Shown here: piece by piece, positions 2,870 through 34,140 of the stretch | Position numbering within the stretch: position 1 is the first letter of the stretch | How the letters are laid out: each line of letters opens with the position of its first letter | NCBI GenBank assembly: GCA_947581885.1 | Contig: CANPWF010000001.1 | Coordinates: 1-36,668, forward strand | Direction: 5' to 3' | DNA from: an uncultured Clostridia bacterium | Lineage (GTDB): Bacteria > Bacillota > Clostridia > Christensenellales > Borkfalkiaceae | DNA length: 36,668 nucleotides | Position numbers and translations under genes: made by a program | Notes under the pieces: model-generated | What the model was told of the DNA's origin: nothing | The model's database searches: none | The model's input: the letters and a program-made list of their open reading frames with translations, nothing else

Positions 2870-2890
2870 AAATGGGATTTTTGAGGAATT

Positions 2891-4379: not shown

Positions 4380-4380
4380 A

Positions 4381-5508: not shown

Positions 5509-5537
5509 AGGCAGAGAAATCAAGAAAGGAGTGGGTC

Positions 5538-6296: not shown

Positions 6297-6310
6297 TGGG
6301 GTGGGAAAAA

Positions 6311-6607
6311 ATGGCGCTTACGGTGAATATTTATTACACGGGAACGGACGGCAACGCGCGGAAATTTGCCGAGGAGATGCGGGCGTGCGGGCTTGTAGAT
6401 CGGGTGCGCGCAGAGAAGGGAAATCTGCGCTACGAGTACTTTCTGCCCATGGACGATGAGGAGACGGTTTTGCTCATCGATGTGTGGGAGAATGAGGCGG
6501 CGCTCGATCTTCACCACAAGAGCCCGATGATGGCGGAAATCGCCGCACTGCGCGAAAAATATCACCTCAAAATGCGGGTGCAAAAATTTTACGGGGAACT
6601 GTCATGA
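6311..6607 (+). CDS. Antibiotic-biosynthesis-monooxygenase (ABM) domain protein (98 aa)
   Basis: It has a ferredoxin-like ABM pattern (ETVLLIDVWENEAALDLHHKSPMMAEI). The start is uncertain. ATG 6311 has a GGTGGG SD-like box. ATG 6296 is an alternative that overlaps the upstream stop (TAATG). The stop overlaps the next start (ATGA at 6604-6607). Confidence 0.8.
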   Translation: MALTVNIYYTGTDGNARKFAEEMRACGLVDRVRAEKGNLRYEYFLPMDDEETVLLIDVWENEAALDLHHKSPMMAEIAALREKYHLKMRVQKFYGELS

Positions 6608-7083: not shown

Positions 7084-7099
7084 TGTTGGAGGAGATACG

Positions 7100-7684: not shown

Positions 7685-7746
7685 CAAGGCCTTGCGGCGG
7701 GCAACTTGCGCCGCACACGACAGAAAATCCGTCAGAAAATTTTGTT

Positions 7747-7777
7747 ACGCCGTCCGCGTTGCGGGCGGCGTATTTTT
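7747..7777 (+). terminator. Rho-independent terminator of the MarR-led operon
   Basis: An 11-bp stem pairs ACGCCGTCCGC (7747-7757) with GCGGGCGGCGT (7761-7771), with one G-U pair and a GTT loop. ATTTTT follows. Confidence 0.8.
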
Positions 7778-8080: not shown

Positions 8081-8111
8081 TTGACACGGGGGGGGGTATT
8101 GGTGTTATAAT
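8081..8111 (+). promoter_or_regulatory. SigA-type promoter with extended -10, driving the giant surface-protein locus
   Basis: TTGACA (8081-8086), a 19-nt spacer, then TGtTATAAT (8103-8111). It is preceded by a very AT-rich UP-like stretch (8020-8066). It lies ~35 nt upstream of start codon 8147. Confidence 0.7.
8088..8096. repeat. G9 homopolymer within the promoter spacer
   Basis: Nine consecutive G lie between the -35 and the extended -10 elements. The surrounding ~300 nt are strongly AT-rich. Confidence 0.95.
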
Positions 8112-8146
8112 TGTAACAAATTTCTTCATAACGGATGGTGAAATTT

Positions 8147-11100
8147 ATGAAGCGCAAAGTTTTATTGATACTTGGCTTGCTGTTCTCCGTCGTCACCCTG
8201 CTAGGTGCGCTTGCCGCATGCGGCGGCGGGGAAGAACCCGAGAAAAAGCAAGCCGGCTCCGAAGCGGGCACATATTACTGCGACTATAATGGGGTAGAGA
8301 ACGATTTGACCCTCGGTGGCGAATGCGAGTTTGAACTCAAGATCGGCGCCACGGTCATGAAGGGCGGTTACGAACTCGAGGGGGAGGGCCTTACCCTCTC
8401 GCCCGAGAACGCCGGCGTGATCTCCGCAAGATATAAGAACGAAAGGATCTCGTTTACCTATTCAAACGTCTCCTATACGTTTTTGCGGAAGATCGAGTAT
8501 ACGGTGAAGTTCGATACCGACGGCGGGACTGCAATCGACGACGTGAAGGTCGTCAACGGAAGGACGGTCGCAAGACCCACCCCGCCCAAGAAGGGTGAAC
8601 TGATTTTTGTCGGATGGTATACCGATAAGACCTATCAGAACCCGTTCTACTTCTCGCAACCCATCACCGGTGATAAGACGATCTGCGCGCGCTTTGTCGA
8701 GCCGCTCGATCCCGAGTTCGATGTAAAATTCGACCTAGGCTATACGGATGCGGCCGCAATGGCGCCTATCCGCACCGTTGGGCATAAACTCTATCCCGAC
8801 CAACTTCCCACGCCCGAGCGCACGGACGGCGTTGCGTTTATCGGCTGGTACGTCAGCGACTTTGAGACGCGCGATAAACTTTCGCGCGCGTTTGACTTGG
8901 AGGCGGAGGTCGCGCAGGACTTCACGCTGTACGCCGTTTGGGCGGAAACGGAAGGCGAGCCCGTCGTCTCGGTGACCGAGAGCGGCGTGGAGATCTCCGT
9001 GGATGGAGAAAACCTCGGCAATTATAATCTCAAAATCACCGCTCCCGACGACAGCGAGTCCACGCATTCTGACGCGCTTGCGACGGGCGCCACGACGAAA
9101 TACGATTACAATTTCGCCGCGCAAAACGAGGGCGAATATAAGGTGGAAGTCGAAGTTTCCGGCAAGACGACGACCCGCTATCTCAACAACAAGGCGCTTG
9201 CACGCGTCTCGGATTTCCGCCTCGAATTGGCGGGCGAGACGAGAACGTTGATCTTTAACAGCGTTGCGGGCGCAACGGAATATAAGATCACCGTAGAGTG
9301 CGGCACGGAAGGGCACGCGGCCGTTCACACCGAAAAATCGCTCGGCACAACCACGGCTTACGATTTCTCCGAGTGCGCTATGGGGGCGGACAAAACCATT
9401 AAGTTCACCGTGAAGGCGTATGCCGCGGGCCACGTGGCGAGCGTCTCCGAAACGTATGTTTACGACAAGACCCTTGACGAAGTGGACGCCATTACATTCG
9501 ACGAAGCGAAGGGTGATGTCACGTGGAGCAAGGTACCGTATGCGACGGCGTACCGTGTGACCGTTTCGCTCAACGACGAGCAAGTGGGCGAAACCACAGA
9601 ACTCCTTGCCGTTGGTACAAGCGGAAACGTGATGCGCTACTCCGTAAAGGAGATCGGAAAGGGCGAGGTGACCATTGAGGTCGTGCCTGTTGCATTCGGG
9701 TGGAATTCTCCCGAGGTCTCGGAATATACCTTTGAAAAACCCGCTCCCGCCGCTCCCACGAACGTACGTTTCGAGGACGGGAAAATCAAGTGGAACGCGG
9801 TCACGGGCGCAACAAAATATGAAGTTGTGATCGGCGAAACGACGAGAATGGCAGTAAGCGATCCCGCCGGGAACACTCCTCCTACCGAATATCAACTGCA
9901 GGAGGCGGACTTCGGCTCCTTGGAGGAGGCTGTGATCACGGTTTATACCGTGGGCGTGGACGACGCGGATAGATCGTACGCTTCGGATGCGATCAGTGTT
10001 GTGAACGCCAATGAGATCCGCGGCCTCGCCTATGCGGGCGGCTACGCGACGTGGAAGCCCGTATTCGGCGCGACTGCCTATCAGTATAAGGTGGGCACCG
10101 GCAACACTTGGAATACCGTCACTGCGTCCAAAGCGGCCATCGAATTCGGGGCTGCGGGCGAGCAGACCATTTCCGTAAAAGCGGTGAAAGACGGGGCCGA
10201 TTCGCCGGTGGAGACCGTTACCGTCACAGTCTATACCGTAGAGTTTGACATCGGCGGTGCCGCGAGCGAGATCGATGAGGTCGCCGACATGTATCTCGCC
10301 GCGGGCGATCCCATCTCGCTTCCCGTGCCTTCTACATGGCCCGGATATGACTTTGATGGTTGGTACACAGAAGATGGCGGCACAGGCGCAAAATACGAAC
10401 TCACCGTGTTCGACGGCGGCGCTTTGACGCTGTTTGCGAAGTGGAACCCCAAGAAATTCACCATTACGCTCGAAGTCGGCGCAGAAGGAACGTGCCAAGA
10501 AACGTTCGAAGTTTATTACAGACAAACAAACATCTGTCTGCCTATTCCCACGCCTGCCTCCGTGGAATATACCTTTAAGGGTTGGTACCTCGGCGTGGGC
10601 GGTACGGGCAGACTCTATGCGAACGCGACTGACGGATCCGCCGGTACATACACGCAACTTACAGACCTCACGGTCTATGCAAAGTGGACGACTCCCTTTG
10701 CGTATACGAATAAGAGTAACAAGCTTACAGTTACCGCGGGTACAAATATCGGCGGCGAAAAAGAAGTGACTATTCCCGATAAGCATGATGGTTTGCCCGT
10801 TACGACGGTCGGCGATTTCAACTCGGGAACCACACTTGAAATCATCAACATCCCCGATACGGTGGGAAACATCACGCTCGGCACCGTGGGTAGCGCATTT
10901 GAGAGCCTCAAGAACTTGAAAGAGGTCAACATCTATCACGTTGAGGGCAACAATACTCCCAAGTATGCTTCCAAGAACGGCATGGTGTATGAAGTGGAAG
11001 GGAATAAACTCGTCTATGTTCCCAAAGCTTACAAAGCTCCCGCTATCGGTCACAAGGACGACCCGGTGGAAGTGACCATTCCCGACAATATCGAGGTCAT

Positions 11101-14100
11101 CGTTTCGGGCGCAATGTACAAGAACCTGACGATCACCAAGCTCACTATTCCTGCATCGGTGCGCGAAGTGCAGACCAACGCCATTTACGGCAACGACTCC
11201 GAAAAGACGAATGCGAACGGCGATAAACTCGCGGAGATCGTGTTTGAAGCGACGGAGAACGGCACGCTTACTATCGCAAACGAGGCGTTTATCAATCTCC
11301 ATACGCTCACATCCATTACGCTTCCCAAGTATGTGCAGGCACTTGATGCAGAAAGTCACACCGTTATTCTCGGCACGGGCCAGATAAAGAACTGCGTAAG
11401 TCTTGAGAATATCAACATCGCGAACGGCGTTCCCGGTGATGCATACTTCTCGGAGGAAGGCGTACTCTGCCGCACCGCAGAGGGCGTGCGCGAGATTGTA
11501 TACTATCCCACTGCCCGTACGGAGACGTTGTATACGTTCCCCACGACGGTCGGAATCACCGTTATCGGCGCTCATGCGTTTGAAAAGGCAAAGAGCCTTC
11601 AAAGCATCGTTATCCCCGCTACCATCACGAAAATCGGGGAAAGCGCGTTCAACGGTTGCGAAGGTATCCAGAGCATCACGTTCCAATCCGGCGAGAGCGA
11701 TCAAGATCTCACGATCGAGAGAGAGGCTTTCGTCGGGACCAAGGCGCAAAGCCTTACGGTCCCCGCAAATGTTACCTCCGCAGGTTGGCACGCCTTCTAC
11801 ATCAGTACGTTGCAAACGGTCACGTTGAAGGGTAAAACGGGTATGCATGTGGAATATGCGGACAAGGGCGTGTTCCATCCTTCGACGGAAAACCTCACGA
11901 TCGAAGCGAACTTCCCCGTCATCGACATTTCGTCGGCATTTTCGAGCATCAACACTGCGGCGGCAGTACCGTCTCTGACGAAGGCAAAACTGAAAACGAT
12001 CAATATTTCCGCGAACGATAATTATAAGCAAGTGACGGGCAACGAAGCCGGTAAGGGCGCCATTTTCGATAAGGATATGACAAAGATCCTCTACATCGTG
12101 GAGGAGACGGAAGACTTTACGGTCCCCGAGGGTATTACCGAGATCGGCTCTGCGTTGTTCTACAATAATAAGACGTTGCGGACCATCACCATTCCCGCAA
12201 GCGTAAAGACGATCGCAGACAGGGCGTTCAGCGGTTGCGAAAATCTTGCCACGGTCACGTTCTCACCGTTCGTGGCACCCGCGGACAGCGGAGAGGCAAA
12301 GCGTGCCGCCTTGACCATAGGGGAGAAGGCATTCAACGAGTGCAAATCTCTCGCAACGATCGAGCTTCCTGCTGAAACGACATCTATCGGCAAGAGCGCA
12401 TTTAATAAATGCGCAAGCCTTACAGAGTTCACCGTCCCCGGCGGCGTGGCAGTTGTGGAAGAGGATCTGTTCTCCGAAGCCGGCATCGAAAGCATCACGC
12501 TTTCCGAAGGCGTATCGATGATCAAGGCGGGCGCGTTCAACAAGTGCGTTGCATTGGAAACGATCTCGCTTCCCGCGAGCATGGCGACCATCGAGCCCTC
12601 CGTGTTTACAGGATGCAAGGCGCTCACAACGATCACTGTTGCAGAGGAAAGTGAACACTTCAAGTCGATCGACGGCGTGTTGTACACTGCCCAAAAGAGA
12701 GCACAATCTACGGAGATAGACCCCGTAGAACTGTTGTTCGTTCCTCTGAACGGCAAGGCCGACAACGGTACGCTCCGCATTCCCGCAACGGTGACGAGCG
12801 TTGCGGAGAGGGCGGCGCAGTTCAACACCGGGATCACCGCGATCGAATTTGCCGAAAAGGTAGTGAAGTATAATGCGACGACCGGCGACGAGGAAGACGG
12901 CACGCTCGTCATCAACGATTATGCGTTTGGGGGAAATTCTACCGGCAAAACAAAGTTCAGCTCTATCAAACTGCCCATCGGGCTTACGACGATCGGCAAG
13001 CAAGCGTTCTCGTATCTGCACGAGTTGACCTCTATCGAAATTCCTTATACGGTGACGACGATCGGAACGCAGGCGTTCTATATGAGCGACCGTTTGGCGA
13101 CCATCACATTTAAGGAGACGCCCCAAGAGACCGCGGGGGTAGAGCTTACACTTGCAGGCAGTCCGTTCCAGAATGTCACCGGGCTGAAAAACATTGTGTT
13201 GCCCGACCGTCCGAAAGTAACGTTGAGCGTTGCGACGTTCTCGCAGTGCTACAACCTCGAATCGGTCACACTTCCTGCGGGTCTTGCGGAATTGCCCGGA
13301 CCTACATCGGGAGATACCGGCATATTCTCTAACTTCAAGAAGCTGACCACCGTCAACTTCCCCGCGCAGGTCTCCGCGAACTTCTCGATCGGCAAGTATG
13401 CCTTCTCCGGGTGCATCAATCTGGCACACGTTGGCACAGCCAAACAGGTGGATGTAGATGGTAAGGGTATGCAGAAAGAAGTCTACTTCCTGCCCGAAGG
13501 CGTCAAGACGATCGGCGCGTATGCGTTCCGTAACAGCGGACTTACGTCGATCGGCATCCCCGCATCGATGAGCGAATTCAGTCTCGAAAGCGAGGGTGGC
13601 ACATGCTACCGCCCGTTCGGGGGTTGCTCGAAGTTGGAAACAATTGCGTTTGCGAACGATTGCGCACTCACCTATCTGCCCGCAGGACTTATGACGGGTG
13701 CGCGTTCGTTGAAGTATGTGGTGTTCGGCAAGAACTCCCACATCCAAACGATCGGCGCATACGCCAGCGAAATAGTATCCGGAAACGGGCAGTCCGACTC
13801 GTTGGCAGGCGGTGTATTTGCGGGGGCTTCCCAACTTGCAAGCATCACGATCCCCGCATCGGTGGAAGTCATCGAAAACGGTTGCTTCATGAATTTGCCC
13901 TCGTTGCAAGAAGTGAAGTTCGAGGAGGGCAGCAAACTGCAAAAGATCGGCGGCGCTCTTATCACTTCGAACACGGAAGAAAAGGGAACAGACCCCGTGT
14001 TCGCTTTCTCCGGGCTCACCTCCTTCACCTTCCCGAAGATCACCAATGAAGCGGGAGAAGTACAGGAACTCAAAGTTGTGGCCGGCATATTTAGCGGATG

Positions 14101-17100
14101 TTCGAGTCTTACAAGCATCGCGATCTCGGAATCGGTGTGGGAGATCGACAATCTCTTAAAAGGCACGGTCGCGCTCGAAACGCTGACGGTTCCGGAAGGA
14201 AGCGAGCGCTTTGAGGTGGACGAGACGAACAAGGCGCTTTATAGCCTCAAAGAAGGCCAGAGGGATGTTCTTCTCGGCATCTACGGCGATCCGGGCAGCG
14301 TACTCAACATTGCAGGCGGCACGACGCAGATCGTGGCAAGTCTTTACAGGGGCAGAACGTCTATCACGCAGGTAAACATTCCCGATACCGTTGTCTCGAT
14401 CGGCGAAAGCGCATTTGAGAACTGCATCAACCTTACAACGGTGACCATCACCGTGGGCGATGGCAAGACGAGTGCGCTCAGCCTCATCGGTGATGCGGCG
14501 TTCAAGAACTGCTGGAAGCTCGCTTCGTTCGACTTTGCAAAGGCAGTCAACCTCAACCGTATCGGCAAGGAGGCGTTCTCCGCTTGTGCTTTCACGAAGC
14601 TCGACTTGCGGCAGAATCATCAGCTTGGCAATAATGCGGGCGGGACGAGTGTAAACGGCATCGGTGCGCAAGCATTTGAAAACGCTCCTCTGCTCGGCAC
14701 GGAGATGATCGATACCGCTATCGCGGCCACGGACCAATACTCCGTCATGTTCCCCGCAGAGCTGAAAACGATCGAGAAGGCGGCGTTCAGGAATACGCCG
14801 ATCACGAAGATCGATTTGAGCGGGACGAAGGTAACAAAGCTACCCGGCGGTACAAGCAACGATGGTATCTTCATGGGCTGTGCGCAACTCAAAGATGTGA
14901 AATTGCCCGTCGGCCTGACGTTGATAGAGGCACGAACGTTCTATAATTCGGGTCTTGAAACGATCAACCTCGAAGAGTTGGTCAACTTGACCGACATCAA
15001 GGCAAATGCGTTCAACAATACGCAACTCACGAGCATCGTGTTCCCCGAGGCAAAGAAGTTTGCAGCGACGACATCGCAATCCAGCATTTTTGCGAACAAC
15101 ACGAAGTTGAAATCTGTGGATATGTCGAAGGCGACCAGAATCCAGACGTACGGCAGCAGCGCATTCTCGGGGTGTCCCGAACTTGAAACGGTAACGTTGC
15201 CGAGCAGTCTCACCACGATCGGCAACAACATGTTTAAGGATTGCACTTCGCTTGAAAGTATCACTATCCCCGAAAATGTGACCTCGATTGGCAACAGCGC
15301 ATTCGAGGGTTGCACGGGTCTTGGAAACGTGACGATTCAAGCGACCGGGCTCAAAACGATCGGCAACAAAGCGTTCTCGGGCACGGTGCTCACGAGCTTC
15401 GATTTCCCGCAGACGGTGGAGTCGCTTGGCACGAACGCATTCGACGGCTGTTCGGAACTCGCGGAAGTGACATTCCACGACAACAGCAAGTTGACCATCG
15501 GAAATTATGCTTTCCAAGGAACGGGTCTCACTTCCGTTCACTTGCCCGAAGGGGTGGCGTCGATCAATCAATATGCGTTCAACAATTGCACGAGCCTCAC
15601 TACGGTGGAGTACGATAAGGACGGCATCACACTCGGTACGAGCTGCTTCGCGAATACCGCTCTCGCATCGTTTGACTTTGCACACGTGAAGGAGGTCGGT
15701 GCTACTGCATTCCAGAACACGAAGTTCACGGAGTTCACTTTCCCTGAACATACCATCTCTTGGAAAGCTGGCGTATTTACCGACTGTGCGGAACTCACGC
15801 AGGCTACGTTCCCGTCGTATGTGACGGAGATCCCCGCCAGCATGTTGAAGGGTTGTACCGCACTTGAAAAAGTGACGATCCAAAACGAATACCTCACCAC
15901 GATCAACAACAGTGCGTTTGAGGGTTGCACGGCGCTCGATGAAATCGAATGGCCCGCATCGCTCGACAGCCTTACAAAGCTCGGCACAAGTGTGTTCAAG
16001 GGGACCGGGTTCACCGCGATGGATCTCTCCAAGATGACGAACGAAAAAATCAACAATTTGCCCACAAGCACGTTCAGCGGCTGTGAAAGCCTTGGAAGCG
16101 TAAGACTAGCGCAGAATATGGTAACTTTCGGCGGGAAAGAAGTGTTTAAGGGCTGCACGAGCCTCACCACGGTGAACGGCATGAACCAAATCACAACGCT
16201 CACCGAAAGCGCATTTGACGGTTGCACGTCGCTCGCGACGATCGACATATCGAACGTGACCACGTTTGCCAAGAATGCCTTCAAGGGGTGCACCGAACTC
16301 AACAATGTGACCATCAACGAGAACGCTACCGCAATCGCCGAGGGAACATTTGCGGGGTGCGCAAGCCTTGCCAATATCGGGGACACTGAGACGGCGAACA
16401 TCACCTCGATCGCCAAGCGCGCATTCCAAGGGACCGCGTTCACGACATTTAAGATCCCCGCGAGCCTTACTACCGTCACCGCTTCCGCGTTCGACAGCTG
16501 CACCGACCTTGTAAGCTTTACCGTAGCGGACGAGAACGAAACGTTTGTAGTCGGTGAAAACGGTGAGCTCTATCAGCGCGGCGAGGGCGACGCGAAGATC
16601 CTCATCTGCTATCCCGCCGCCGCCACGACCGTGGAGATCGCCGCGGATGCGACGGAGATCGCTGCGCTTGCGTTCTCGGGCATAGGCGGCACGGGCAAGA
16701 CCCTCACCGTTCCCGGGAATGTCACGATCGACGGCTACGCCTTCGTGGGCTGCACATTCGATAAGGTCATCGTGGAGGACGGCGAAGGAGCCCTTGCACA
16801 GTACGCCTTTGCGCAAAACTCGTCGACTTATCCTGATGCGATTTGCGGCGTCAAAGAGGTAGAGTTCAGGGGCAGCACGGCGCTCAATGCGTCGGCGGCA
16901 ATGACCTCCTCCCAGTACCTGTTCCAGAACAACACGGGTACCACCAAGGTGACATTCCCCGAAGGGCTTACGACGATCGGCTCTTATTGGTTCGCAGGCA
17001 CAAGCAAGACGTCTTCCGCGGATGCGATCCCCACGGCTATCACCACAGTGGTTATTCCCGCCTCGGTGACGACCATCAAGGATTCGGCGTTCAAGGACGC

Positions 17101-17959: not shown

Positions 17960-18007
17960 GTGAACATTCCGCAAAATTGCGGAAAAAATTGAACGAAAGC
18001 AGTAAGA

Positions 18008-18040
18008 CCTCAGCGGTTTTCTTCGGAAATACCGCTGAGG
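18008..18040 (+). terminator. Stable UUCG-capped hairpin after the giant gene (weak or partial terminator, or a processing site)
   Basis: CCTCAGCGGTTTTC (18008-18021) pairs with GAAAtACCGCTGAGG (18026-18040), with a TTCG loop and one bulged T. There is no proper U-tract afterwards (CATACGCGTTTC). A smaller hairpin lies at 17968-17985. Confidence 0.4.
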
Positions 18041-18092
18041 CATACGCGTTTCAAAAGAACCTTGAAAAAATCGCCTTTGAAAGGAGGATACT

Positions 18093-19199
18093 ATGAAGGA
18101 CACCATGAAGAAATTCCGGCGAAGGATCGTCCGCGGCGCCATTTTGAAATCGGCTCTTGCCGCGCTCATCATCGCGTGCGGCGCGCTCCTCGTGACTGCA
18201 CTCGCCTCGTGGATCGCGGGCTTCCGTGCGGGCATCTGGCTCGCGCTCGGGCTGTTCGTCCTTTCGTTCGCAGTCAGCGCGCTCCTGTTCTATTTCCTCA
18301 AGTACCGCCCCTCCGCAAAGGAAGTGGCGCGCAGGATCGACGCGATCGGCCTTGAAGAGCGCCTCATCACGATGATGGAACTCGAAGGGGATGATTCCTA
18401 CCTCGCAAAAATGCAACGCGCGGACACCGAGCGGGCGCTCAAAACCGCCGACCATACCCTCATCAAAGTGGCGGCGTCGGTCGCGCTGTGCGTGACCGTG
18501 GGCGTTGCCGCGCTCTTTGGGGTGGGTGCGCTCACCGTCGATTCGCTCTACGTGGCGGGAGTCATCCCCAGCGGCGTGGAGTATGCCGCCTACCTTGAAG
18601 CAGAGCATGAGTTTACGTGCAGTTATTCCGTCGAAAAGAAGGGCGGCAAGATTTACTTCCTGACGGAGGAGGGCATCGGAGACGAAGTGACGGAAGCCAT
18701 CATCGTGGCCAAGGGCGAAAGCGCCCCGACTGTCATTGCCGTGCCCGATGAAGGCTACGTATTTACGGGATGGTCGGACGGCCTGTACGACCCCGTCCGC
18801 TGCGACGAGGGCGTGAAGGAGAAGATCCGCGTGCGCGCCAAGTTTGCGGTAGCCGAGGGACCTGACGATTTGCAGGATGACGGGGCCCAGCAACAAAAGC
18901 CTTCGGACGACGACTCCAGCGGCGATCCGGAAGATACGCCCCCGCAAGACGATCCCTCTCAACCGTCAAACGGCGCTCCAAGCAATGGCGCCAGCGGCGG
19001 CCACGACAATACCAACCAACAGGTCAATGACGGCAAGACCTATTACGGCGACGAGTACGGTGACGCCTACAATGACGCGATGGGACGCCTCGGCGACGGG
19101 AGCAATATCCCTGGGGATCTGCAGGGCGGCGTTTCGGGTTACCTCGATTCCATCGGCAAGGGCGGCTCCGAAGGCGGCGAAAGCGGCGGCGGAAATTAA
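18093..19199 (+). CDS. Three-TM membrane protein with an external Listeria-Bacteroides repeat and an acidic/Gly-Ser-rich tail (368 aa)
   Basis: An AAGGAGG SD lies 5 nt upstream. A TM hairpin spans aa ~17-70. A charged helical segment follows (EVARRIDAIGLEERLITMMELEGDD...), then a third TM (VAASVALCVTVGVAALFGVGAL). Next comes a Flg_new-like module (IAVPDEGYVFTGWSDGLYDP...RVRAKF). The last ~118 aa are low-complexity D/S/G/P/N (nt ~18843-19199). Confidence 0.85.
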   Translation: MKDTMKKFRRRIVRGAILKSALAALIIACGALLVTALASWIAGFRAGIWLALGLFVLSFAVSALLFYFLKYRPSAKEVARRIDAIGLEERLITMMELEGDDSYLAKMQRADTERALKTADHTLIKVAASVALCVTVGVAALFGVGALTVDSLYVAGVIPSGVEYAAYLEAEHEFTCSYSVEKKGGKIYFLTEEGIGDEVTEAIIVAKGESAPTVIAVPDEGYVFTGWSDGLYDPVRCDEGVKEKIRVRAKFAVAEGPDDLQDDGAQQQKPSDDDSSGDPEDTPPQDDPSQPSNGAPSNGASGGHDNTNQQVNDGKTYYGDEYGDAYNDAMGRLGDGSNIPGDLQGGVSGYLDSIGKGGSEGGESGGGN

Positions 19200-19232
19200 A
19201 GCGACAAAAATTCTTACAAAGAGAGAGAAACC

Positions 19233-20378: not shown

Positions 20379-20394
20379 ACGGGCGTAAAAGTGA

Positions 20395-23240: not shown

Positions 23241-23245
23241 AGATC

Positions 23246-26050: not shown

Positions 26051-28935
26051 AGATCGGAAAGAGATTGTTCTGTTTGATCCTCGCCTTGTGTCTGTCGCTT
26101 CCGCTCGCCGCCTGCGGCGGGACGGAACTCGAAGCCCCCACGGGGATCGATTTGAGCGAAGAATATATGCTTTCCTGGGACGAGATGAAGAACGCGCGTT
26201 CCTATGAGGTGGAGATCACCGACGTCGCAAGCGGACAGACGAATGTCGATCCGAGCCGCCGCGCGAGTTACGACCTCTCCGCACTCTCCGAGGGCGATTA
26301 TTCCGTTCGTCTGCGCTCGGTGGGCGGGCAGGGGAACAACGAGTTCTCCGAGTGGACGGAAAAGTTTGATTTCCACAGAGAATATGAGTCGGGGCTCATC
26401 TATTCGCTCATCAACAGCGATATGGAATACGCCGTCATCAAGGTGGGGAAAGCCGAGGGCGACGTCGTGATCGAGGACACCTATCGCGGGAGACCCGTCA
26501 CCGCCATCGCCGACGCGGCGTTCCGTTCTGCAGGGGGACGCGTGACAAGTGTGACGTTCGGCAAAAACGTCAGGACTATCGGAGACAGCGCATTTTACAA
26601 CTGCACGGGCCTCACAAAGGTGACGATGAGCGATTCCGTTGTCTCCATCGGCAAGTCCGCCTTCCAAAACTGCGGCGCGCTCGAATCGATGACGCTCTCC
26701 GCCTCGCTGACGACGATCCCCGAGTATGCGTTTGCCTATTGCAAGTCGTTGCAGACGCTGGCGCTCGGCGATAAAATCACCTCGATCGGCGAATCCGCAT
26801 TTACGAATTGTTCTGGTCTCGCGCAGCTCCGACTTCCTGATTCCGTCGCCACTATCGGCGAATACTCGTTCAACGAGAACGACGCGCTTGCCGAAGTCAC
26901 GTTCGGTGCAGGCATCCGGACGATCAAAGGGCGCGCATTTTATGGGTGCGATGCCTTGCGCTCCGTCGTCTTTCCGGCACAACTTGCGGAGGGGAACTCC
27001 CTTTCGTTGGGTATATATGCGTTTTCCAACTGTGACGCGCTTGAAACGGTGGAACTTCCCGAGGGGACGGCTTCCATCGGGGAGGGGTGCTTTTCATACT
27101 CCGAACAGTTTGACAATATCGAGATTCCCGCGAGCGTAGAATCCGTCGGCTTCGGAGCGTTTACGGAGACGGCGCTTGAAAAATCGCAGGAGGGGAACGA
27201 TATGGTATATGCCGACCATTGGTTGCTCTCCATATCCCCTACGCTTTATTTGACATGTCAGACTGTTGACGACACCGTTTTGCGCCCTAACACAGTAGGG
27301 ATCGCCGATCGCGCATTTATCCGTCTCATTACGTCAAGCGACACAGGAATATCCCAATATTCCGGTGCGCCACAATTAGAGCGGATCAATCTGCCCTCCT
27401 CGGTGAAATATATCGGCCAATATGCATTTTACAACTCACCGTCGTTGAGCCGTCTGCACGCATTGAACGGCGGACTGCGGAAGATCGGCGCCTATGCGTT
27501 TGCCGGTTGCGGAGTGCTCAGCGGTGTGCAATTCAGCGAAGGTTTGCTTGAAATCGGTCAGTACGCTTTCTATCTCTGCACATTGTTGAACAATAACCGC
27601 AATGCACCACATTATTTGGTGCCCGAATCGGTCACGCGGATCGGGACCTATGCGTTTCGCGATACGATGCTGTGGACTTCGGCAAATGATAACGATGCGG
27701 TCTACGCCGGAAATTGGGTCGTGGGGTATAAAGGAGCGCCCACAGAGATCACTTTGAGAGAGGGCAACAATGCGGTGGAGGGCATTTCGGATTATGCTTT
27801 CTATAATGCAAGCACGCTGAGAACAGTTTCAAACGTGCAGTTGGCGCGATATGTCGGCGTAGGGGCGTTTTACGGATGCGCGGCGCTTTCCGCAATCAGT
27901 TTAAACAGAGATCTTGAAAAAATCGGTTCATATACGTTTTACGGATGCGCGGCGCTATGGCGCGTCTCACTTCCCACGAGGCTTACTGAGATCGGGGCAT
28001 ATTCGTTCTATAATTGTTCCGGTCTACTTCGAGTTTTGCTTTCGGGGTTTGATTTCGAGGGGCTCGATCTATCGGCGTGTCGCGTGCGCAAGATTGGAGA
28101 GCGTGCGTTTTACGGGTGCGAAGGGTTAAGAGGCGTCAGGTTTGGATCGATGCTTGAATCTCTCGGGACGCGCGCGTTCTACGGATGTACAATGTTGAAA
28201 GAGGTGACGATCCCCGGCACGGTGAAGGAGATCGGCGAAGCCGCCTTTGCCAAGAGCGCGGTTTCTGTCCTCACGTTGGAAAACGGGATAGAGAAGATCG
28301 GAAAGGACGCATTCCGCATGACGTCTGTTGCGGCGGTGCATATTCCTGACAGTGTGAAAGAAATCGGTCAAGCGGCATTTTACGACGCCTCTCAGAACTT
28401 GATCATCGACCTCGGCAACGGGGTGGAGCGCATCGGCGACTACGCCTTCGGGCGCAATTCCGGTGTGGTCGGGAACGTGACGATTCCCGCGAGCGTAAAG
28501 GAGATCGGGAAGTATGCGTTTGCCGAGTGCGTGAACCTCGGGAGTGTCATCTTCCGCGGCGCCCCTTCCTCGATCGGCTCCAATGCGTTTTACCTCTGTT
28601 CTCGTCTTACGTTCTACGTGGCGGACGGGGTAGAACTCCCCGGAGAGGGCTGGAATTCCTCCTTCCGCCCCGAGATAAACGGGTGCACGCTCTCAGACGA
28701 CGGCACCTACGTGTTTTCCGTGACGGTAGGCAATATCCGCTACGGCACGGCGTTCGGCGGACTGACGGCTCCCTCGCGCGCGGGCTTTGATTTTGTGGGT
28801 TGGTCCACGAGCCCCGGCGGCGAGCCCGATTACGCCGCGGGCGACCTTGCGTCAGCGCCGAATGGCATCACGCTGTATGCCGTCTACCGTTATCATACGG
28901 AAACGCCCGAGGGCGGAGCGCCCTCGCAAGAATAA
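26047..28935 (+). CDS. BspA-type LRR surface lipoprotein (962 aa) with a C-terminal Listeria-Bacteroides repeat
   Basis: The start overlaps the VWA stop (ATGA at 26047-26050). The lipobox is PLAAC (Cys codon 26113-26115). One FN3-like module follows (LSWDEMKNARSYEVEI...). The LRR_5-type array spans ~26380-28660 (IGDSAFYNCTGLTKVTM, IGESAFTNCSGLAQLRL, ...). The Flg_new repeat lies at ~28690-28885 (GFDFVGWSTSPGG...ITLYAVY). Confidence 0.92.
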   Translation: MKIGKRLFCLILALCLSLPLAACGGTELEAPTGIDLSEEYMLSWDEMKNARSYEVEITDVASGQTNVDPSRRASYDLSALSEGDYSVRLRSVGGQGNNEFSEWTEKFDFHREYESGLIYSLINSDMEYAVIKVGKAEGDVVIEDTYRGRPVTAIADAAFRSAGGRVTSVTFGKNVRTIGDSAFYNCTGLTKVTMSDSVVSIGKSAFQNCGALESMTLSASLTTIPEYAFAYCKSLQTLALGDKITSIGESAFTNCSGLAQLRLPDSVATIGEYSFNENDALAEVTFGAGIRTIKGRAFYGCDALRSVVFPAQLAEGNSLSLGIYAFSNCDALETVELPEGTASIGEGCFSYSEQFDNIEIPASVESVGFGAFTETALEKSQEGNDMVYADHWLLSISPTLYLTCQTVDDTVLRPNTVGIADRAFIRLITSSDTGISQYSGAPQLERINLPSSVKYIGQYAFYNSPSLSRLHALNGGLRKIGAYAFAGCGVLSGVQFSEGLLEIGQYAFYLCTLLNNNRNAPHYLVPESVTRIGTYAFRDTMLWTSANDNDAVYAGNWVVGYKGAPTEITLREGNNAVEGISDYAFYNASTLRTVSNVQLARYVGVGAFYGCAALSAISLNRDLEKIGSYTFYGCAALWRVSLPTRLTEIGAYSFYNCSGLLRVLLSGFDFEGLDLSACRVRKIGERAFYGCEGLRGVRFGSMLESLGTRAFYGCTMLKEVTIPGTVKEIGEAAFAKSAVSVLTLENGIEKIGKDAFRMTSVAAVHIPDSVKEIGQAAFYDASQNLIIDLGNGVERIGDYAFGRNSGVVGNVTIPASVKEIGKYAFAECVNLGSVIFRGAPSSIGSNAFYLCSRLTFYVADGVELPGEGWNSSFRPEINGCTLSDDGTYVFSVTVGNIRYGTAFGGLTAPSRAGFDFVGWSTSPGGEPDYAAGDLASAPNGITLYAVYRYHTETPEGGAPSQE

Positions 28936-28962
28936 ATGAGTTATCAATGAGGAGTGTTGATT

Positions 28963-31900
28963 ATGAAGCGAATCGGAAAAAGATTGTTGACTTGTATCCT
29001 GATGGCGCTGTGCGCGCTCTGTCTCGTGCTCGCCGCCTGCGGTGAGGGGGACAAGATCGAATTTTCTTTCGAAACAAACGGCGGTTCGCCCATCGAGACG
29101 GTCTATGTCGACAAGGGCGAAACGTACACGTTGCCGACTCCGCAGAGGGAGGGCTACGGTTTCGAGGGCTGGTACGACAATGCGGAATTTTCCGGGACGG
29201 CCGTAACCGAGGTCGTCGCGGAAAATCCCACAAAATACTATGCAAAGTGGGAACAACTCTACGAGATCAAACTCGAACTCGACGGCGGCACGCTCACGAC
29301 TGGGAAACTCTATGCAAAGACCGGCGATGCGATCTACGACGCCGTTAAGGACCTCGTACCAACCAAAGAGGGTTGGCAGTTTGGCGCATGGTATTTGGGC
29401 GGCACAGAACTCTCCCGCGCCACGCAGATGCAAACGGCGGACGTGACCCTCACCGCGCACTATAAAGTGGGCTATAAGGTGGAGATCTACAAACAGGACA
29501 CCGATTTGGAAGGGTACACGAAGGAAGAAAAGGACTATGTTGGCTACGAGTATATCACTTCTACGCCGTACACGCCCAATGTTGCGGTAAGGGGCTTTGA
29601 TCTTGCCGCCACACAGCCTGCGGACGGCGCCGCTCCGGCGATCACTTCCAAAGTTTTGACGGAAACCCCGTCGGATAACGTGTTCCGCCTGTATTACGAC
29701 AGGAAGCTCGTGGAAGTGACGATTGCCCCCAACTATCCCGACGGGCAAGCGGGCACACCCATTCAACGGCAGATCAGGTACGGCTGTGAAATGGAACTTC
29801 CGGTTGCGGAGTTTGCGGCAGACGGCTATTTCCTGTATGCTTGGTCGGCGATGGACGCCGAAGGCAACACGGACGTCATCGAGAGCGACTACATCAAGAG
29901 TTTGCTTGTCAACGTCGATGGAGGCGACGCCGAGTTTTCCGAAACGGTGGAGGTCGGGGAATACACCTCCTTTACCGCCCTTTGGAGCAAGGGCTACACC
30001 GACATGATGCGTGGCGTGGACCGAATTTATCTGTTCCATGAGGACGATACGGTTTGCTATCTCGAACGCTACGGAAAATACTTCGAGGGCGAATACACGC
30101 CGTTGACCCACTCTGCATATTTCTCTAATGGACGGAAATCTTTGGAGGGCCGGTTAAAGGACGACCATACTTTTATCTACGCACTCACTTCTAGAGACAC
30201 AATGACCGCCGACTACTATTCGTTCTCGGACGGCGTTGACAGTACCCGCCAAATCACTTTTGATGCGTATGATGGTCTTACCTATAATAATGGGGGGAGC
30301 TCGTCGGACGGAACATATACGATTGATGCAGCGAATAATTATCACGTTACATTCACGACCGGTGAATTGAGAGGACAAATGCTTGTGTTGCGCCTCTTGC
30401 AATCGACGGTAGATGGCGCAACGCGCACGCTCTTCCAGTTCCGCAACGAGGAAGAGTACGAAATGCCGATCTTGCAGCGTGCGCTCGTCGCCGAGCAGGG
30501 CGGTACCAATGTTGTCACCTATCTCATCAGCAATCTTTTATCCATTGACCTCGATGGCTACGGCATAGCGGTCATGAACCTCGGCGATGACGAGACGACA
30601 AACTATTACTATACACGCACGGAAGAAGCGCTCACCCTCTATAACACCAGCGGCAGAGTCTACGGCGTGTGCAAGTTTGTAATGGTCAGTAACATCTGTT
30701 GCTACATTCCCTATGATGAGGATATGGATGTCACATATACCTCTGAGGACGGAACGCTTAAACTCGATGGCGTCTCCGAGGCAATTTACAGGCCGAAGGG
30801 CAAGGCAACCGTCACCGGGACGTATTCCTACACCGCCTCGGTGTTCGGCGGAAATATCGTGACCGTTGCGATCAACAACGATCACTACGTGTTCCTTGTC
30901 AAGTCCGAAACGTCGGGGGAAGGCGAAGATATCGTTACGACGTACACCTATGAGAGAAAGCCGGACGGGTATGCCGAATATTACCATACGGACGGCAGAT
31001 ACATCAACTTTACCCCCATCATCGTGATCAACGAGACGGCGGAGGGCAGGGCGTCTGTCTACGGCGCTTCGGGTACATCTTCGCAACACGCATTCCACAA
31101 GGTCGCGGCGGGTCTGTACACGTACAACGCCAATCATCAAACGTATGCCCTCACCATCGACCATTGGGAGACGTACCCCGAGGACATTTTGGAGACGCCC
31201 ATCGATCTTCACAATCTCGCTGTCATCGTATTCGGCGTGAACACCACGCGCACGAATACGGCGCTCTATCATGTCTCCTATTGGCAGAGCATCAAGCGCA
31301 CGAGCGATGAAGCCGCGGATGACCTCACGACGACATATACGGGCCGAGTGACGCGTGGCAGTGAAACTGTGAATGCGACACTTTCGCTCGTGGGCGGATT
31401 TGCCATTTTGAAGATTGACACGGAAGATTGGAAAGTCGGTTCGTATTCGACGTCTAACGGTGTCACGACGGTCAACATCGGGCTCACGGAAAACACCTCG
31501 CGCTTCTATGTCGAACTCAACGATGGCGGCACAAAGACTTTCACCCATCTCAACCAACTGCTCGGCAGCGCGCGGGAGCGCAATGCCGACGGCACGTCGA
31601 ACAGTAACGTCACGTTCGAGTTTAACGGCAAGGGCGGCGCGACCCTCGTCACACAGCAGTCGGAGAGCGATCCGAAGCGCGTTGCGGGAACGATTGAGGA
31701 ACAGGACGATATCGAGGGCGTCGAGGGCACCGTCTACAAGTTCACGCCGGCCGAGGAGGGCGATACGCAAGAATTCCGCTTCGTGCTCCTCACTTCGGGC
31801 TCTTACACCTACTTCACCCGCGAGACGACGGACTACAACGGGACCTATACGGAGACGGGCGGCACGGGCACGCTCACGCTCGACGGCTTCGGCTTCCGCG

Positions 31901-34089
31901 GCACCTTCACCGTGGAAGGCGAAGATGAACCCCTCGTGGGCGTCTATTCCATCGTGGACGCCGACAAGAGGATCGTCTGCGTGATGGTCGGGAGCGACCC
32001 CTACTATTTTGATATCACGGATCGGAATTACGTGGTTCGCGGCTCGGAATACGGCGCATATATGTTCATCGTCAACTATGCCAACAACGGGTATCTGTTG
32101 CGCCTTGACGGGCACGAGAAAGCCACGTTGGAGAAGGACGAAATTGTCGTTGCAAACGGTTCGTACAGCGAGAAGAACGGCGTCTATACGCTGGATCTCA
32201 CGTTGGAAACGGAGGTCGCGGGCATCAATACGACGTATACGGGAGCCCTCGGGGAAGTCATACAAAACAATCAGAGATACAACGCCTTCCTTGTGGAATT
32301 CTCCAATGCGCGCAACGTCTATGTGGACCGCACGGAATGGACCGTGCTCATGCTCGACGGCTTCGGCAACGCGGTGCGTTTCGGGCAGTACGGCGGCGCG
32401 GAGCGCGGAACGTACACCGTGCTCACGGATGACCTCGTTTACTATGCGAACAGTGCGGGCACTGATGCGTGCATCTATCAGTACAGCGGCGACGGAATGG
32501 TCGGCGAGATCGTCATGCGGGAATACACCGCGCAGGGCTACTATACCCAAAACCTCGATGCGCTCCTCTTCACGGAATACGGCTTCATGCAGTTCAACGG
32601 CACGACGAGATATTACTACGAAATGGACGACGAGGGGAATGTCACCATTTACCGCCGTGCCTTCGGCGAAGAGGGCGCAAACAAATACGGGTTCCTTAAA
32701 AATGAGATCGGCAAGTTAGAGGATGAGTTGGACCTCAGCGGCATTGTCACAGAAAGCTTCGGTCAAGAGAAGTATTACAGCGCAGACGGCTACGCCATTA
32801 CCTTTAAGCGCGCGGAGGACGATAAATACGACGACACGCACTTCAAATATCCCGTCAGCGTGAGCGAGAAGGATGAAACCCTCTATTCGCTCGAAGACCT
32901 CGTGTTTGCACCCACGGGCGGCGATTCGTTTTCCGTGAGGGCGACGATCATCATCAACGGGAAGGACTATACGGGCACTATCCACCGCGCCGTCGTCAAA
33001 AACGGAGATACAGACGAGGCAACGACTACCGAATGGTATCTCACAAACGGCAACCTCCGCTTTGATCTCGAACTGTACTATCAGGGTGCGGAACACGCTA
33101 CGTACAAAATCACACAGTTGCGGAGCATTCGGACCTATCAGTCGAATATGTATCTTGACGTGTACCTCATGATGCTGCTTTTGCTCGGCTATCCGATGAC
33201 CGATTCGTTCGGCACGATCACCCTCGTCACGGAGTTCAACGAGGATGGTACCCCCGGCGAGGGCGACAAACAGTATATTACGTCGGCGTTCGGGCAGGGT
33301 TCCGCTTTGTACGGGTACGAGTTGGAGAAGCAACCCTACGAATATGACGAAGAGACGGGCATTTACACCGTCGAGTTGCCGGAAAAGAAAGCGGCTTCCG
33401 AAGAAGAGGCCCCCGCCGAAGAGCCCGCCGCTACGTACAAATACCGCCTGTATTTCACCTTGGAACCCAGCGATATGTTCTTGCAGATCGGCTATGAGAT
33501 GTGGGGGTACACCGTTCTCGCGTATACGCGCGTGGAGACGCTTCAAACGTCGGAGGCCGAGCCGCAGTACACCGTCACGGCGGAGCGCGTCCTCTACGGC
33601 GACACCAACAGATATCGGGCGGGCGACTACTATTCGGTGAAACTGCAAAAGGGAGCAGAGGAGACGATCGCCGCGTACGACCATCTGCTCACAGTCGGAG
33701 ATGCACTGTATTATGTGGTGTATACGCGCAAAGAGGAGAAGATCACCGCGGCGAAGTACTACGAACTCAAGTTCACCGAGGAGGACAGCGGATCCATCGC
33801 GGGGGACGAAGTGAAACTTTTGAAGAGCGTCGCGGTCCGCGAGATGGACGCAACGGTCTATTATACCGACGGCGGTTCGTATGCGGAAGTGCTCACGGAC
33901 GGCGCGGAGAAGAAGATCGTCCACGTCTACTACTCGCAGGATTACACCGTCACGGAGTGTGAGTACGATGCAGAAAGCCAAACGTTCACCGTGACGACCT
34001 CGACGGGCAGACGGCTCTCGATCAAGATCACGGACGAAACGGGCAAGAAAATCGAGATCACGGAGATCGTGGAAGAGGCGGAGGAATAA
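28963..34089 (+). CDS. Large surface lipoprotein (1,708 aa): N-terminal Listeria-Bacteroides repeats plus ~1,366 aa of unassigned beta-rich sequence
   Basis: ATG 28963 has a GAGGAG SD ~7 nt upstream; the ORF-track start 28954 is a GTG inside the SD region. The lipobox is VLAAC (Cys codon 29038-29040). Flg_new-type repeats span nt ~29056-29990 (FSFETNGGSPI...GYGFEGWYDN...YYAKW; WQFGAWYLGG...; YKVEIYKQD...). I recognise no family in the remainder. Confidence 0.9.
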   Translation: MKRIGKRLLTCILMALCALCLVLAACGEGDKIEFSFETNGGSPIETVYVDKGETYTLPTPQREGYGFEGWYDNAEFSGTAVTEVVAENPTKYYAKWEQLYEIKLELDGGTLTTGKLYAKTGDAIYDAVKDLVPTKEGWQFGAWYLGGTELSRATQMQTADVTLTAHYKVGYKVEIYKQDTDLEGYTKEEKDYVGYEYITSTPYTPNVAVRGFDLAATQPADGAAPAITSKVLTETPSDNVFRLYYDRKLVEVTIAPNYPDGQAGTPIQRQIRYGCEMELPVAEFAADGYFLYAWSAMDAEGNTDVIESDYIKSLLVNVDGGDAEFSETVEVGEYTSFTALWSKGYTDMMRGVDRIYLFHEDDTVCYLERYGKYFEGEYTPLTHSAYFSNGRKSLEGRLKDDHTFIYALTSRDTMTADYYSFSDGVDSTRQITFDAYDGLTYNNGGSSSDGTYTIDAANNYHVTFTTGELRGQMLVLRLLQSTVDGATRTLFQFRNEEEYEMPILQRALVAEQGGTNVVTYLISNLLSIDLDGYGIAVMNLGDDETTNYYYTRTEEALTLYNTSGRVYGVCKFVMVSNICCYIPYDEDMDVTYTSEDGTLKLDGVSEAIYRPKGKATVTGTYSYTASVFGGNIVTVAINNDHYVFLVKSETSGEGEDIVTTYTYERKPDGYAEYYHTDGRYINFTPIIVINETAEGRASVYGASGTSSQHAFHKVAAGLYTYNANHQTYALTIDHWETYPEDILETPIDLHNLAVIVFGVNTTRTNTALYHVSYWQSIKRTSDEAADDLTTTYTGRVTRGSETVNATLSLVGGFAILKIDTEDWKVGSYSTSNGVTTVNIGLTENTSRFYVELNDGGTKTFTHLNQLLGSARERNADGTSNSNVTFEFNGKGGATLVTQQSESDPKRVAGTIEEQDDIEGVEGTVYKFTPAEEGDTQEFRFVLLTSGSYTYFTRETTDYNGTYTETGGTGTLTLDGFGFRGTFTVEGEDEPLVGVYSIVDADKRIVCVMVGSDPYYFDITDRNYVVRGSEYGAYMFIVNYANNGYLLRLDGHEKATLEKDEIVVANGSYSEKNGVYTLDLTLETEVAGINTTYTGALGEVIQNNQRYNAFLVEFSNARNVYVDRTEWTVLMLDGFGNAVRFGQYGGAERGTYTVLTDDLVYYANSAGTDACIYQYSGDGMVGEIVMREYTAQGYYTQNLDALLFTEYGFMQFNGTTRYYYEMDDEGNVTIYRRAFGEEGANKYGFLKNEIGKLEDELDLSGIVTESFGQEKYYSADGYAITFKRAEDDKYDDTHFKYPVSVSEKDETLYSLEDLVFAPTGGDSFSVRATIIINGKDYTGTIHRAVVKNGDTDEATTTEWYLTNGNLRFDLELYYQGAEHATYKITQLRSIRTYQSNMYLDVYLMMLLLLGYPMTDSFGTITLVTEFNEDGTPGEGDKQYITSAFGQGSALYGYELEKQPYEYDEETGIYTVELPEKKAASEEEAPAEEPAATYKYRLYFTLEPSDMFLQIGYEMWGYTVLAYTRVETLQTSEAEPQYTVTAERVLYGDTNRYRAGDYYSVKLQKGAEETIAAYDHLLTVGDALYYVVYTRKEEKITAAKYYELKFTEEDSGSIAGDEVKLLKSVAVREMDATVYYTDGGSYAEVLTDGAEKKIVHVYYSQDYTVTECEYDAESQTFTVTTSTGRRLSIKITDETGKKIEITEIVEEAEE

Positions 34090-34097
34090 CGCCGAAA

Positions 34098-34140
34098 GAG
34101 AAAAGCGGGAGGGCATTCGCCCTCCCGCTTTTCTCTTCTT
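34098..34140 (+). terminator. Strong rho-independent terminator ending the 26-kb locus
   Basis: A perfect 17-bp stem pairs GAGAAAAGCGGGAGGGC (34098-34114) with GCCCTCCCGCTTTTCTC (34119-34135), with an ATTC loop. A T-rich tail follows. Confidence 0.85.

Follow-up and report, generated by a model that had tools for sequence, protein, structure and literature searches.

A MoxR/DUF58/VWA cassette and three giant lipoproteins share a conserved eight-gene locus in uncultured gut Clostridia

The window analysed here comprises 36,668 nucleotides of contig CANPWF010000001.1 from an uncultured Clostridia bacterium (forward strand; positions refer to the whole window). It contains a locus of about 26 kb, bounded by a consensus promoter and an intrinsic terminator, in which a MoxR-type ATPase cassette is combined with three giant lipoproteins. 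Eight open reading frames (ORFs) on the + strand occupy positions 8147–34089, in agreement with an earlier interpretation made from the DNA letters alone (the sequence-only reading). They are labelled G1 to G8 in order, and labels from L001 to L094 denote related loci. G1 (8147–17959) encodes a lipoprotein of 3,270 amino acids with a lipobox and with Flg_new and LRR_5 modules assigned by Pfam. It is followed by G2 (18093–19199), an adaptor-like protein with three transmembrane segments predicted from hydropathy, and G3 (19233–20378), a MoxR-type AAA+ ATPase (AAA_3 208 bits, AAA_lid_2 56 bits). G4 (20395–21294) is a DUF58 protein (110 bits), G5 (21291–23240) a BatA_N-VWA membrane protein (BatA 35.9 bits, VWA_2 35.8 bits) and G6 (23246–26050) a membrane protein of 934 amino acids with two VWA domains (90 bits). 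The last two genes encode lipobox-bearing lipoproteins, namely G7 (26047–28935) with 962 amino acids, LRR_5 (451 bits) and Flg_new, and G8 (28963–34089) with 1,708 amino acids and two N-terminal Flg_new repeats. All eight genes lie on the + strand; the start of G5 overlaps G4 by 4 nucleotides, the start of G7 overlaps G6 by 4 nucleotides, and the G3/G4 gap of 16 nucleotides equals the median over the related loci.

The domain content proposed earlier could be confirmed. The profile searches that the sequence-only reading had recommended were run with Pfam and found every domain it had named, including the whole MoxR, DUF58, BatA_N-VWA and double-VWA core. The three lipoprotein lengths agree with start codons supported by ribosome-binding sites. 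Flg_new, claimed for G1, G2, G7 and G8, was matched in all four proteins, marginally so in G2, where Flg_new_2 reached 23.7 bits against a cut-off of 23.6. The two large leucine-rich repeat (LRR) arrays were recovered as LRR_5 stretches in G1 (21 stretches) and G7 (six), and neither an LPXTG motif nor an SLH domain was found.

The strongest evidence that these genes belong together is the conservation of their order. One genome per species was scanned for relatives of G6, and 330 genomes were positive. The best 80 of the 330 are gut metagenome-assembled genomes (MAGs) from rabbit, deer, goat, chicken and human. The comparison covered 82 distinct loci with G6 identities of 43–83%. Six-frame ORFs of all loci were searched with the eight window proteins, a locus being informative for a gene when its contig reaches the position of that gene. 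G1 (50 of 50 informative loci), G2 (53 of 53), G5 (77 of 77) and G7 (80 of 80) were present throughout, and G3, G4 and G8 in 59 of 61, 67 of 69 and 70 of 72 loci, respectively. Order and strand are unchanged in all 82 loci, and the uncultured gut Clostridia in which the eight-gene order is kept number at least 80 species. Across the loci the median distance at G4/G5 and at G6/G7 is −4 nucleotides, an ATGA-type overlap. Six neighbourhoods at 47–83% G6 identity each contain the same eight genes, and the genes downstream of them are unlike one another (DUF697, glutamate dehydrogenase, ABC transporter, S8 peptidase, dapB). The proteins themselves differ strongly in conservation: identity to the window proteins is highest for G3 (75–90%), followed by G4, G6 and G5 with about 40–50%, G7 with 35–44%, G2 and G8 with about 30–35% and the fast-diverging G1 with about 25–28%. 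The gene-neighbourhood comparison proposed in the sequence-only reading has thus placed the cassette together with LRR/Flg_new lipoproteins in 82 loci from about 80 species with differing flanks, and an order shared by so many species removes the scenario of an adjacency found in a single genome. Because the order is conserved, the flanks differ and start and stop codons overlap, genome comparison lends good support to a functional link of cassette and lipoproteins, and the earlier interpretation is partly borne out.

More than 1,200 proteins in the collection searched are full-length relatives of G6, and all of them come from uncultured Clostridia; the family comprises 949 clusters at the 50% identity level at E below 1e-30. 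The few named genomes, Subdoligranulum sp. CAG:314, Candidatus Scatosoma, Christensenella sp. UBA4636 and a Christensenellaceae bacterium, point to a Christensenellales-like clade. Six MAGs have two complete, divergent copies of the locus (L015/L031, L016/L035, L027/L049, L043/L051, L045/L057 and L013/L079). The G6 copies are 46–51% and the G8 copies about 30–36% identical, and these pairs represent either old paralogues or bin contamination.

More distant relatives show how the locus may be divided into a core and its additions. At about 30% G6 identity, L090 contains a small G1 (an LRR_5 protein of 741 amino acids), G2–G6 and a G7 of 849 amino acids, without G8, and L092 contains a G1 of 4,113 amino acids and G3–G8, without G2, plus a giant S8-peptidase/LRR_5 protein. 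The Izimaplasma-type locus L089 has G2–G6 alone, and the gene directly behind G6 encodes a Flg_new-CotH lipoprotein. In Candidatus Izimaplasma HR1 (L091) G2–G6 again stand alone and are followed by small lipoproteins. In the Clostridium-type loci L093 and L094 an ABC transporter and a G2-like protein precede MoxR-DUF58; G5 and G6 are fused into a protein of about 1,500 amino acids in L093 (10001–14575), and in L094 (68–16340) the gene of a GH9-CBM3 protein begins 2 nucleotides past G6. The full series of genes that precedes the Clostridium-type cassettes encodes a lipoprotein of about 790 amino acids, an ABC ATPase, an ABC-2 permease and the G2-like protein. Homologues of G2 lie directly upstream of MoxR in both the Izimaplasma-type and the Clostridium-type cassettes. 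Because G2 accompanies MoxR, DUF58, BatA and G6 in these loci that lack LRR proteins, we assign it to the core, and the earlier placement of G2 among the partners has to be revised. Judged by gene content, G2–G6 make up a five-gene core, to which the LRR/Flg_new lipoproteins are a lineage-specific yet fixed addition. The commonest feature shared by cassette-adjacent proteins is the Flg_new module. Downstream of G8, some relatives have another giant gene (L006 20898–22805; L092 22049–23027), encoding 2,461–2,507 amino acids with Peptidase_S8, PA, fn3_5 and LRR_5 domains, and the flanks of L006, L032, L065 and L092 contain extra LRR_5 genes.

The cassette itself has the composition of Bat-type modules, with a MoxR protein carrying Walker motifs, a DUF58 protein encoded directly downstream and membrane proteins with BatA_N and MIDAS-VWA domains (MIDAS, metal ion-dependent adhesion site). 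Both the Walker A (GVPGVGKT) and the Walker B motif (ILADEINR) of G3 are intact, and among 54 orthologues 193 residues reach a conservation of at least 95%. The C-terminal tail of G3, about 60 residues of low complexity rich in Glu, Lys, Ala and Pro (window 20190–20378), is found in some orthologues only, and orthologue lengths range from 329 to 391 amino acids. Topology was predicted from hydropathy and charge (positive-inside rule). G5 and G6 each have an N-terminal transmembrane hairpin and a C-terminal transmembrane segment, and Lys/Arg-rich loops put their VWA domains outside, whereas residues about 67–125 of G2 are predicted to lie inside. G3 and G4 have no transmembrane segment, and for this reason both are probably cytoplasmic. 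All four VWA-type domains retain residues of the MIDAS, which are invariant or conserved to at least 95%: D88, S90 and S92, a DxSxS-like set, in G4; D97, S99 and S101 in G5; D80 and S82 in the first VWA domain of G6; and the invariant D440, S442, S444, T513 and D542 in the second. This conservation argues that metal-dependent ligand binding is under selection in G4, G5 and both G6 domains. The region between the two VWA domains of G6 matches GATase1_like with 23.8 bits, under the cut-off of 27, a match that is faint in most orthologues, and DUF4350 gave no match. The most conserved part of G2 is its predicted cytoplasmic loop (residues about 70–112, consensus YRPs.K.vA.RiD..GLEER..TM.ELE.d.sy.A..QR.dT), which is recognisable out to Izimaplasma. 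The ectodomain of G2 bears the Flg_new_2 repeat, and its tail is acidic and rich in Gly and Ser.

The lipoboxes of the three lipoproteins read LGALAAC in G1, LPLAAC in G7 and LVLAAC in G8, and among 75 orthologues of G7 and 70 of G8 the lipobox cysteine is conserved to at least 95%. G1, scanned in ten pieces, has Flg_new repeats at residues about 118–181 and about 696–765 (107 bits) and LRR_5 repeats from about residue 1140 to the C-terminus (1062 bits). In G7 a weak fn3-like N-terminal domain precedes the LRR_5 stretches, and Flg_new is found at the C-terminus. Membership of two known families of large surface proteins was considered and rejected: HupY/LrrG (NF047961) reached 193 and 168 bits against a cut-off of 1250, a similarity at the level of the repeats, and Gli349 (NF045861) reached 95 and 82 bits against 1750, covering short repeat stretches only. 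G7 aligns with its orthologues in one colinear segment of about 960 amino acids and G8 in one of about 1,750 residues; these colinear full-length alignments mark true orthologues and not repeat matches.

G8 is the least familiar protein of the locus. Beyond its Flg_new repeats, it has no sequence match in Pfam, NCBIfam or PDB, and full-length relatives are confined to this locus family. BLAST revealed no internal repeats in residues 170–1711 (window 29461–34086). AlphaFold2 models based on 45 orthologues are confident and all-beta, with a pLDDT of 90.0 for residues 170–1000 and of 89.6 for residues 1001–1711. Foldseek searches of both segment models against PDB, in which subdomains were not searched separately, returned only beta-propeller/Rhs-type matches; such an identity was rejected, since TM-scores of 0.16 or below are not meaningful. 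We regard G8 as a candidate for a new fold or domain arrangement.

Expression of the locus is probably started from a sigma-70-type promoter (8081–8111, + strand), which was read directly from the sequence. It consists of a −35 element TTGACA (8081–8086) and an extended −10 element TGtTATAAT (8103–8111), both hexamers being perfect, so that the strong promoter of the sequence-only reading was found as described. The spacer contains a run of nine G (8088–8096) and measures 19 nucleotides, for which reason our promoter scan, set to spacers of 16–18 nucleotides, did not list the site. This run is the sole one of at least 7 G or C bases across the 36.7-kb window, and runs of 8 or more are rare in the related loci, with seven in 1.8 Mb. 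With one or two G fewer, the spacer would have an optimal length. A G tract in the promoter spacer is the classical layout for slipped-strand variation and suggests, on sequence grounds, a phase-variable promoter. A metagenome search with G1 residues 1–500, made for upstream and promoter regions, yielded only two weak, Flg_new-level matches, and the related loci all lack the start of G1. At the other end, the intrinsic terminator noted earlier with a 17-bp stem (34098–34140) was identified as a 19-bp stem at 34096–34137 on the + strand (ΔG −37.7 kcal/mol, z = −7.0) whose core is rich in G+C and whose 3′ side is rich in U.

Between these two signals, the G1/G2 spacer (17960–18092) contains a 14-bp stem-loop on the + strand (18008–18040, z = −5.2) without a U tract. 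In the related loci this spacer is the longest of the locus, with a median of 162 nucleotides. Its best local hairpin is at or below −15 kcal/mol in 96% of 49 loci (median −28), and the spacer is significantly structured (z below −2) in 93% of 44 loci (median z −4.5). In comparison, the G7/G8 and G2/G3 spacers have a median z of about −1 and are not structured. Across L001–L088 the G1/G2 stem-loop is kept in position, not in sequence, and mostly has no U tract. As an Rfam scan of the whole window matched no family, neither the 5′ region nor this hairpin is a known RNA. The stem-loop is a candidate attenuator or mRNA-stabilising 3′ element, and by one of these means G1 is probably expressed at a level different from that of G2–G8. 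The earlier statement that no convincing terminator interrupts the locus therefore needs a qualifier, as does the single-operon reading, since a conserved hairpin after G1 argues against a uniform single transcript.

Bat-type operons are described in Bacteroides fragilis, Leptospira and Borrelia, where they comprise BB0170–BB0176 (PMC3557215, PMC5700661). They share with the locus the sequence of a MoxR AAA_3 protein, then DUF58, then membrane proteins with a BatA_N hairpin and a MIDAS-VWA domain. The VWFA domain of Borrelia BB0173 was mapped experimentally as periplasmic (PMC5700661), which agrees with the predicted outward position of the VWA domains in G5 and G6; the host considered here is probably a monoderm, given its affiliation with Clostridia. 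BB0172 binds integrin alpha3beta1, and BB0172 and BB0173 adjoin MoxR (PMC5700661). Work on Leptospira and Borrelia left the role of the Bat proteins unsettled (PMC3557215, PMC5700661). In contrast to Bat operons, BatC, BatD and BatE were not detected, as neither TPR and SH3 (BatC/BatE) nor BatD families matched any of the eight proteins in Pfam and NCBIfam. The locus goes beyond these operons in the double-VWA protein G6, the G2 adaptor family and the three fixed giant lipoproteins.

Three further groups of systems combine some of the same elements. The PFNA cluster of Bifidobacterium, pkb2-fn3-aaa_atp(MoxR)-duf58-tgm, also places MoxR and DUF58 in a conserved cluster whose genes all run in one direction and which includes a large repeat-bearing surface protein, a proposed adhesin; its authors suggested that MoxR may chaperone this protein (PMC8430577, PMC6803598). 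PFNA differs in having a Ser/Thr kinase, a transglutaminase-like membrane protein and an FN3-based surface protein, and in lacking VWA/BatA; conversely, kinase and transglutaminase families matched no gene of our locus. In archaea, arCOG01314 (DUF4350/GldG-like) occurs with MoxR (COG0714), a secreted vWA protein and predicted S-layer or Ig-like proteins, and Makarova et al. predicted a secretion or membrane-remodelling complex, as a prediction only (PMC5898192). In both cases MoxR and an extracytoplasmic vWA domain share an operon with several large surface proteins, and the role proposed for the ATPase, assembly or regulation of a complex, is the same. The archaeal system has a flavodoxin-fold ectodomain, to be set beside the sub-threshold GATase1_like region of G6; it differs in being archaeal, in its surface proteins and in that a DUF58/BatA_N architecture was not reported. 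RavA-ViaA is a MoxR-VWA pair that remodels clients (PMC3893208) and, together with CbbQ-CbbO, NorQ-NorD and BchI-BchD, in which an AAA+ hexamer acts via a VWA/MIDAS adaptor, serves as a model for G3 and G4. In those pairs clients and adaptors are cytoplasmic or at the inner membrane face, whereas three of the four VWA-type domains encoded here are predicted outside. The BspA-type adhesins (Tannerella forsythia BspA, Treponema denticola LrrA, streptococcal HupY/LrrG) and InlB B-repeat proteins likewise expose surface-anchored LRR_5 or Flg_new modules; the lipoproteins of the locus differ in their lipid anchor, in their much greater size and in their fixed place in an operon that includes a MoxR/VWA cassette. 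The earlier claim that no described system links such a cassette with an LRR adhesin complex is too strong in view of the partial precedents PFNA, BB0172/BB0173 and archaeal arCOG01314. Our literature searches turned up no account of the eight-gene arrangement, the G2 family or G8.

We propose, with about even confidence, that the eight genes act together as a single conserved module, whose product would be a surface complex anchored in the cell membrane. The proposal starts from the observed gene content, synteny, overlaps and conservation of MIDAS, ATPase and lipobox motifs. MoxR ATPases act with VWA/MIDAS adaptors on dedicated client complexes, for example in CbbQ-CbbO and NorQ-NorD. The G2–G6 core would be a Firmicute form of the Bat-type MoxR/DUF58/VWA module, and in the Christensenellales-like clade it would have acquired G1, G7 and G8 as three dedicated lipoproteins. 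Anchored by their hairpins and C-terminal segments, G5 and G6 would show three MIDAS-competent VWA domains on the outside. Since these domains and the lipoproteins are predicted on the same side of the membrane, the topology fits the functional link. The outward MIDAS sites could bind and organise G1, G7 and G8, possibly through the Flg_new (InlB B-repeat) modules common to G1, G2, G7 and G8, and the LRR_5 arrays would project from the cell, with ligands to be bound on host material, food particles or other cells. On the cytoplasmic side, a MoxR hexamer and its VWA-like partner DUF58 would power ATP-dependent assembly or remodelling, with the signal running through the conserved G2 loop and the short loops that G5 and G6 have in the cytoplasm. 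These interactions, the direction of the coupling and the adhesion are what we infer. Expression would start at the promoter with the nine-G run, possibly in a phase-variable manner, and the stem-loop would set the level of G1 apart from that of G2–G8.

Several points weigh against this proposal. G2–G6 occur without LRR or Flg_new neighbours in Candidatus Izimaplasma HR1 and the Clostridium-type loci, so that the basic job of the core is not tied to LRR proteins. L080 and L084 cleanly lack MoxR and DUF58 and keep G1, G2 and G5–G8, which implies that the locus can do without the ATPase in cis; either a MoxR/DUF58 pair encoded elsewhere acts in trans, or the pair is dispensable. In their place stands a spacer of about 120 nucleotides (L080 5523–5654, L084 7926–8044). 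The G2 loop of these loci keeps its core motif and has an identity of 0.48–0.51 to the consensus versus a median of 0.67 elsewhere, a small shift in two loci. Owing to the hairpin, G1 may be a partly separate transcription unit. The lengths of G7 (925–1057 amino acids) and G8 (1633–1785 amino acids) are near-constant and their conservation is moderate and even, so that by sequence they appear to fit structural subunits at least as well as adhesins. The adhesin complex of the sequence-only reading needs correction on this point: G7 and G8 evolve like structural subunits and not like fast-diversifying adhesins. With ordinary Sec/SPII signals, the lipoproteins would appear to do without a special exporter. 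We know of no Bat-type system with a known route from the cytoplasmic AAA+ ring to the extracytoplasmic VWA domains, and the host organisms are uncultured.

The evolution of G7 and G8 leads to an alternative that we consider unlikely, namely that G1, G7 and G8 are fixed subunits of an envelope or surface coat, that the cassette serves envelope integrity, and that ligand binding by the LRR arrays is secondary or absent. The constant lengths and colinear full-length orthology of G7 and G8 are what such a structural module would show, and a large, confidently folded all-beta protein such as G8, with no known analogue, would suit it as well. It is also consistent with the near-universal retention of the locus in the clade, the two complete copies in some MAGs and the archaeal association of MoxR and vWA proteins with predicted S-layer proteins (PMC5898192). 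The fast divergence of G1, in contrast, does not fit a structural part. A Rhizobium MoxR/DUF58 operon, RL3499–RL3502, is reportedly needed for envelope integrity. On the other hand, LRR_5 (BspA-type) arrays and InlB B-repeats are ligand-binding adhesin modules where they have been studied, and the G tract in the promoter is typical of variable surface antigens or adhesins and not of essential scaffolds.

Quite unlikely, in our view, is mere co-location, in which the cassette has a membrane or stress job of its own and the lipoprotein genes share its transcription unit and inheritance. The occurrence of the core without LRR partners elsewhere, the retention of the lipoproteins in L080 and L084 without MoxR and DUF58, and the abundance of LRR_5 genes in these genomes, as in the flanks of L006, L032, L065 and L092, would all be expected under co-location. 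Yet order, strand and the 4-nucleotide overlaps persist in loci with as little as 43% G6 identity (about 30% for L090 and L092) and the flanks do not; moreover, the cassette sits between its partners and not just beside them, and the VWA domains share a compartment with the lipoproteins.

Returning to the proposed surface complex, we also considered, as an improbable extension, that it works as an inside-out machine. ATP use by MoxR and DUF58 might move the G2 loop, the G5/G6 hairpins and the outward MIDAS sites, so that adhesion by the LRR arrays is switched or cycled. By analogy, this might resemble integrin inside-out activation or the ATP-driven legs of Mycoplasma mobile. If true, the general function of Bat-type cassettes would be that of energy-coupled organisers of extracytoplasmic protein complexes.

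A further reading, in which the cassette would be a new secretion system devoted to exporting or translocating the giant lipoproteins, along the lines of what Makarova et al. put forward for the archaeal arCOG01314/MoxR/vWA system (PMC5898192), strikes us as very unlikely. Besides this published prediction on a related theme, the very large size of the cargo-like proteins and the ABC transporter that adjoins the cassette in Clostridium-type relatives could be taken in its favour. Yet G1, G7 and G8 have standard lipoprotein signal peptides, for which Sec, Lgt and Lsp should suffice, and the cassette membrane proteins have three transmembrane segments each and include no evident channel-forming subunit. 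In addition, MoxR proteins have no known translocase activity. A MoxR-vWA conflict or anti-phage system of the type of Kaur et al. 2020, with LRR proteins as sensors, can hardly be credited: LRR arrays are sensors in other immunity systems and G3 weakly matches bpMoxR (35 bits) and, in PADLOC, DolB, but AAA_3 with 208 bits lies far above bpMoxR, the PADLOC scan of G2–G8 gave nothing for G2 and G4–G8, Pfam scans found no effector domain (nuclease, peptidase, TIR etc.), and the VWA and LRR parts lie outside the cytoplasm or carry a lipid anchor.

Upstream of the locus, on the + strand (366–7684), pheT is followed by a redox-type cluster that is unrelated to the locus and encodes a MarR regulator, two Flavodoxin_4 proteins, an FMN reductase, a 4Fe-4S aldo-keto reductase, a CMD-cupin protein and a cyclophilin-like protein; it closes with a terminator at 7746–7772. 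Directly past the terminator of the locus lies an IS30-type transposase gene (HTH_38 and rve; 34219–35238, − strand), a slot that is filled by other genes (DUF697, gdh, dapB etc.) in the six related neighbourhoods.

Bat operons have been known since the 1990s, and to our knowledge few bacterial gene clusters that lack a known client or mechanism are as widespread as MoxR-DUF58-BatA/VWA cassettes. G1, G7 and G8 are the first concrete candidate clients for a cassette of this type and are open to modelling and biochemistry. Two new protein families are defined with them, the G2 adaptor with its conserved, predicted cytoplasmic loop and the all-beta G8. Gut Clostridia of rabbits, ruminants and humans devote 26 kb, twice in some MAGs, to a possibly phase-variable surface complex that probably matters for colonisation.

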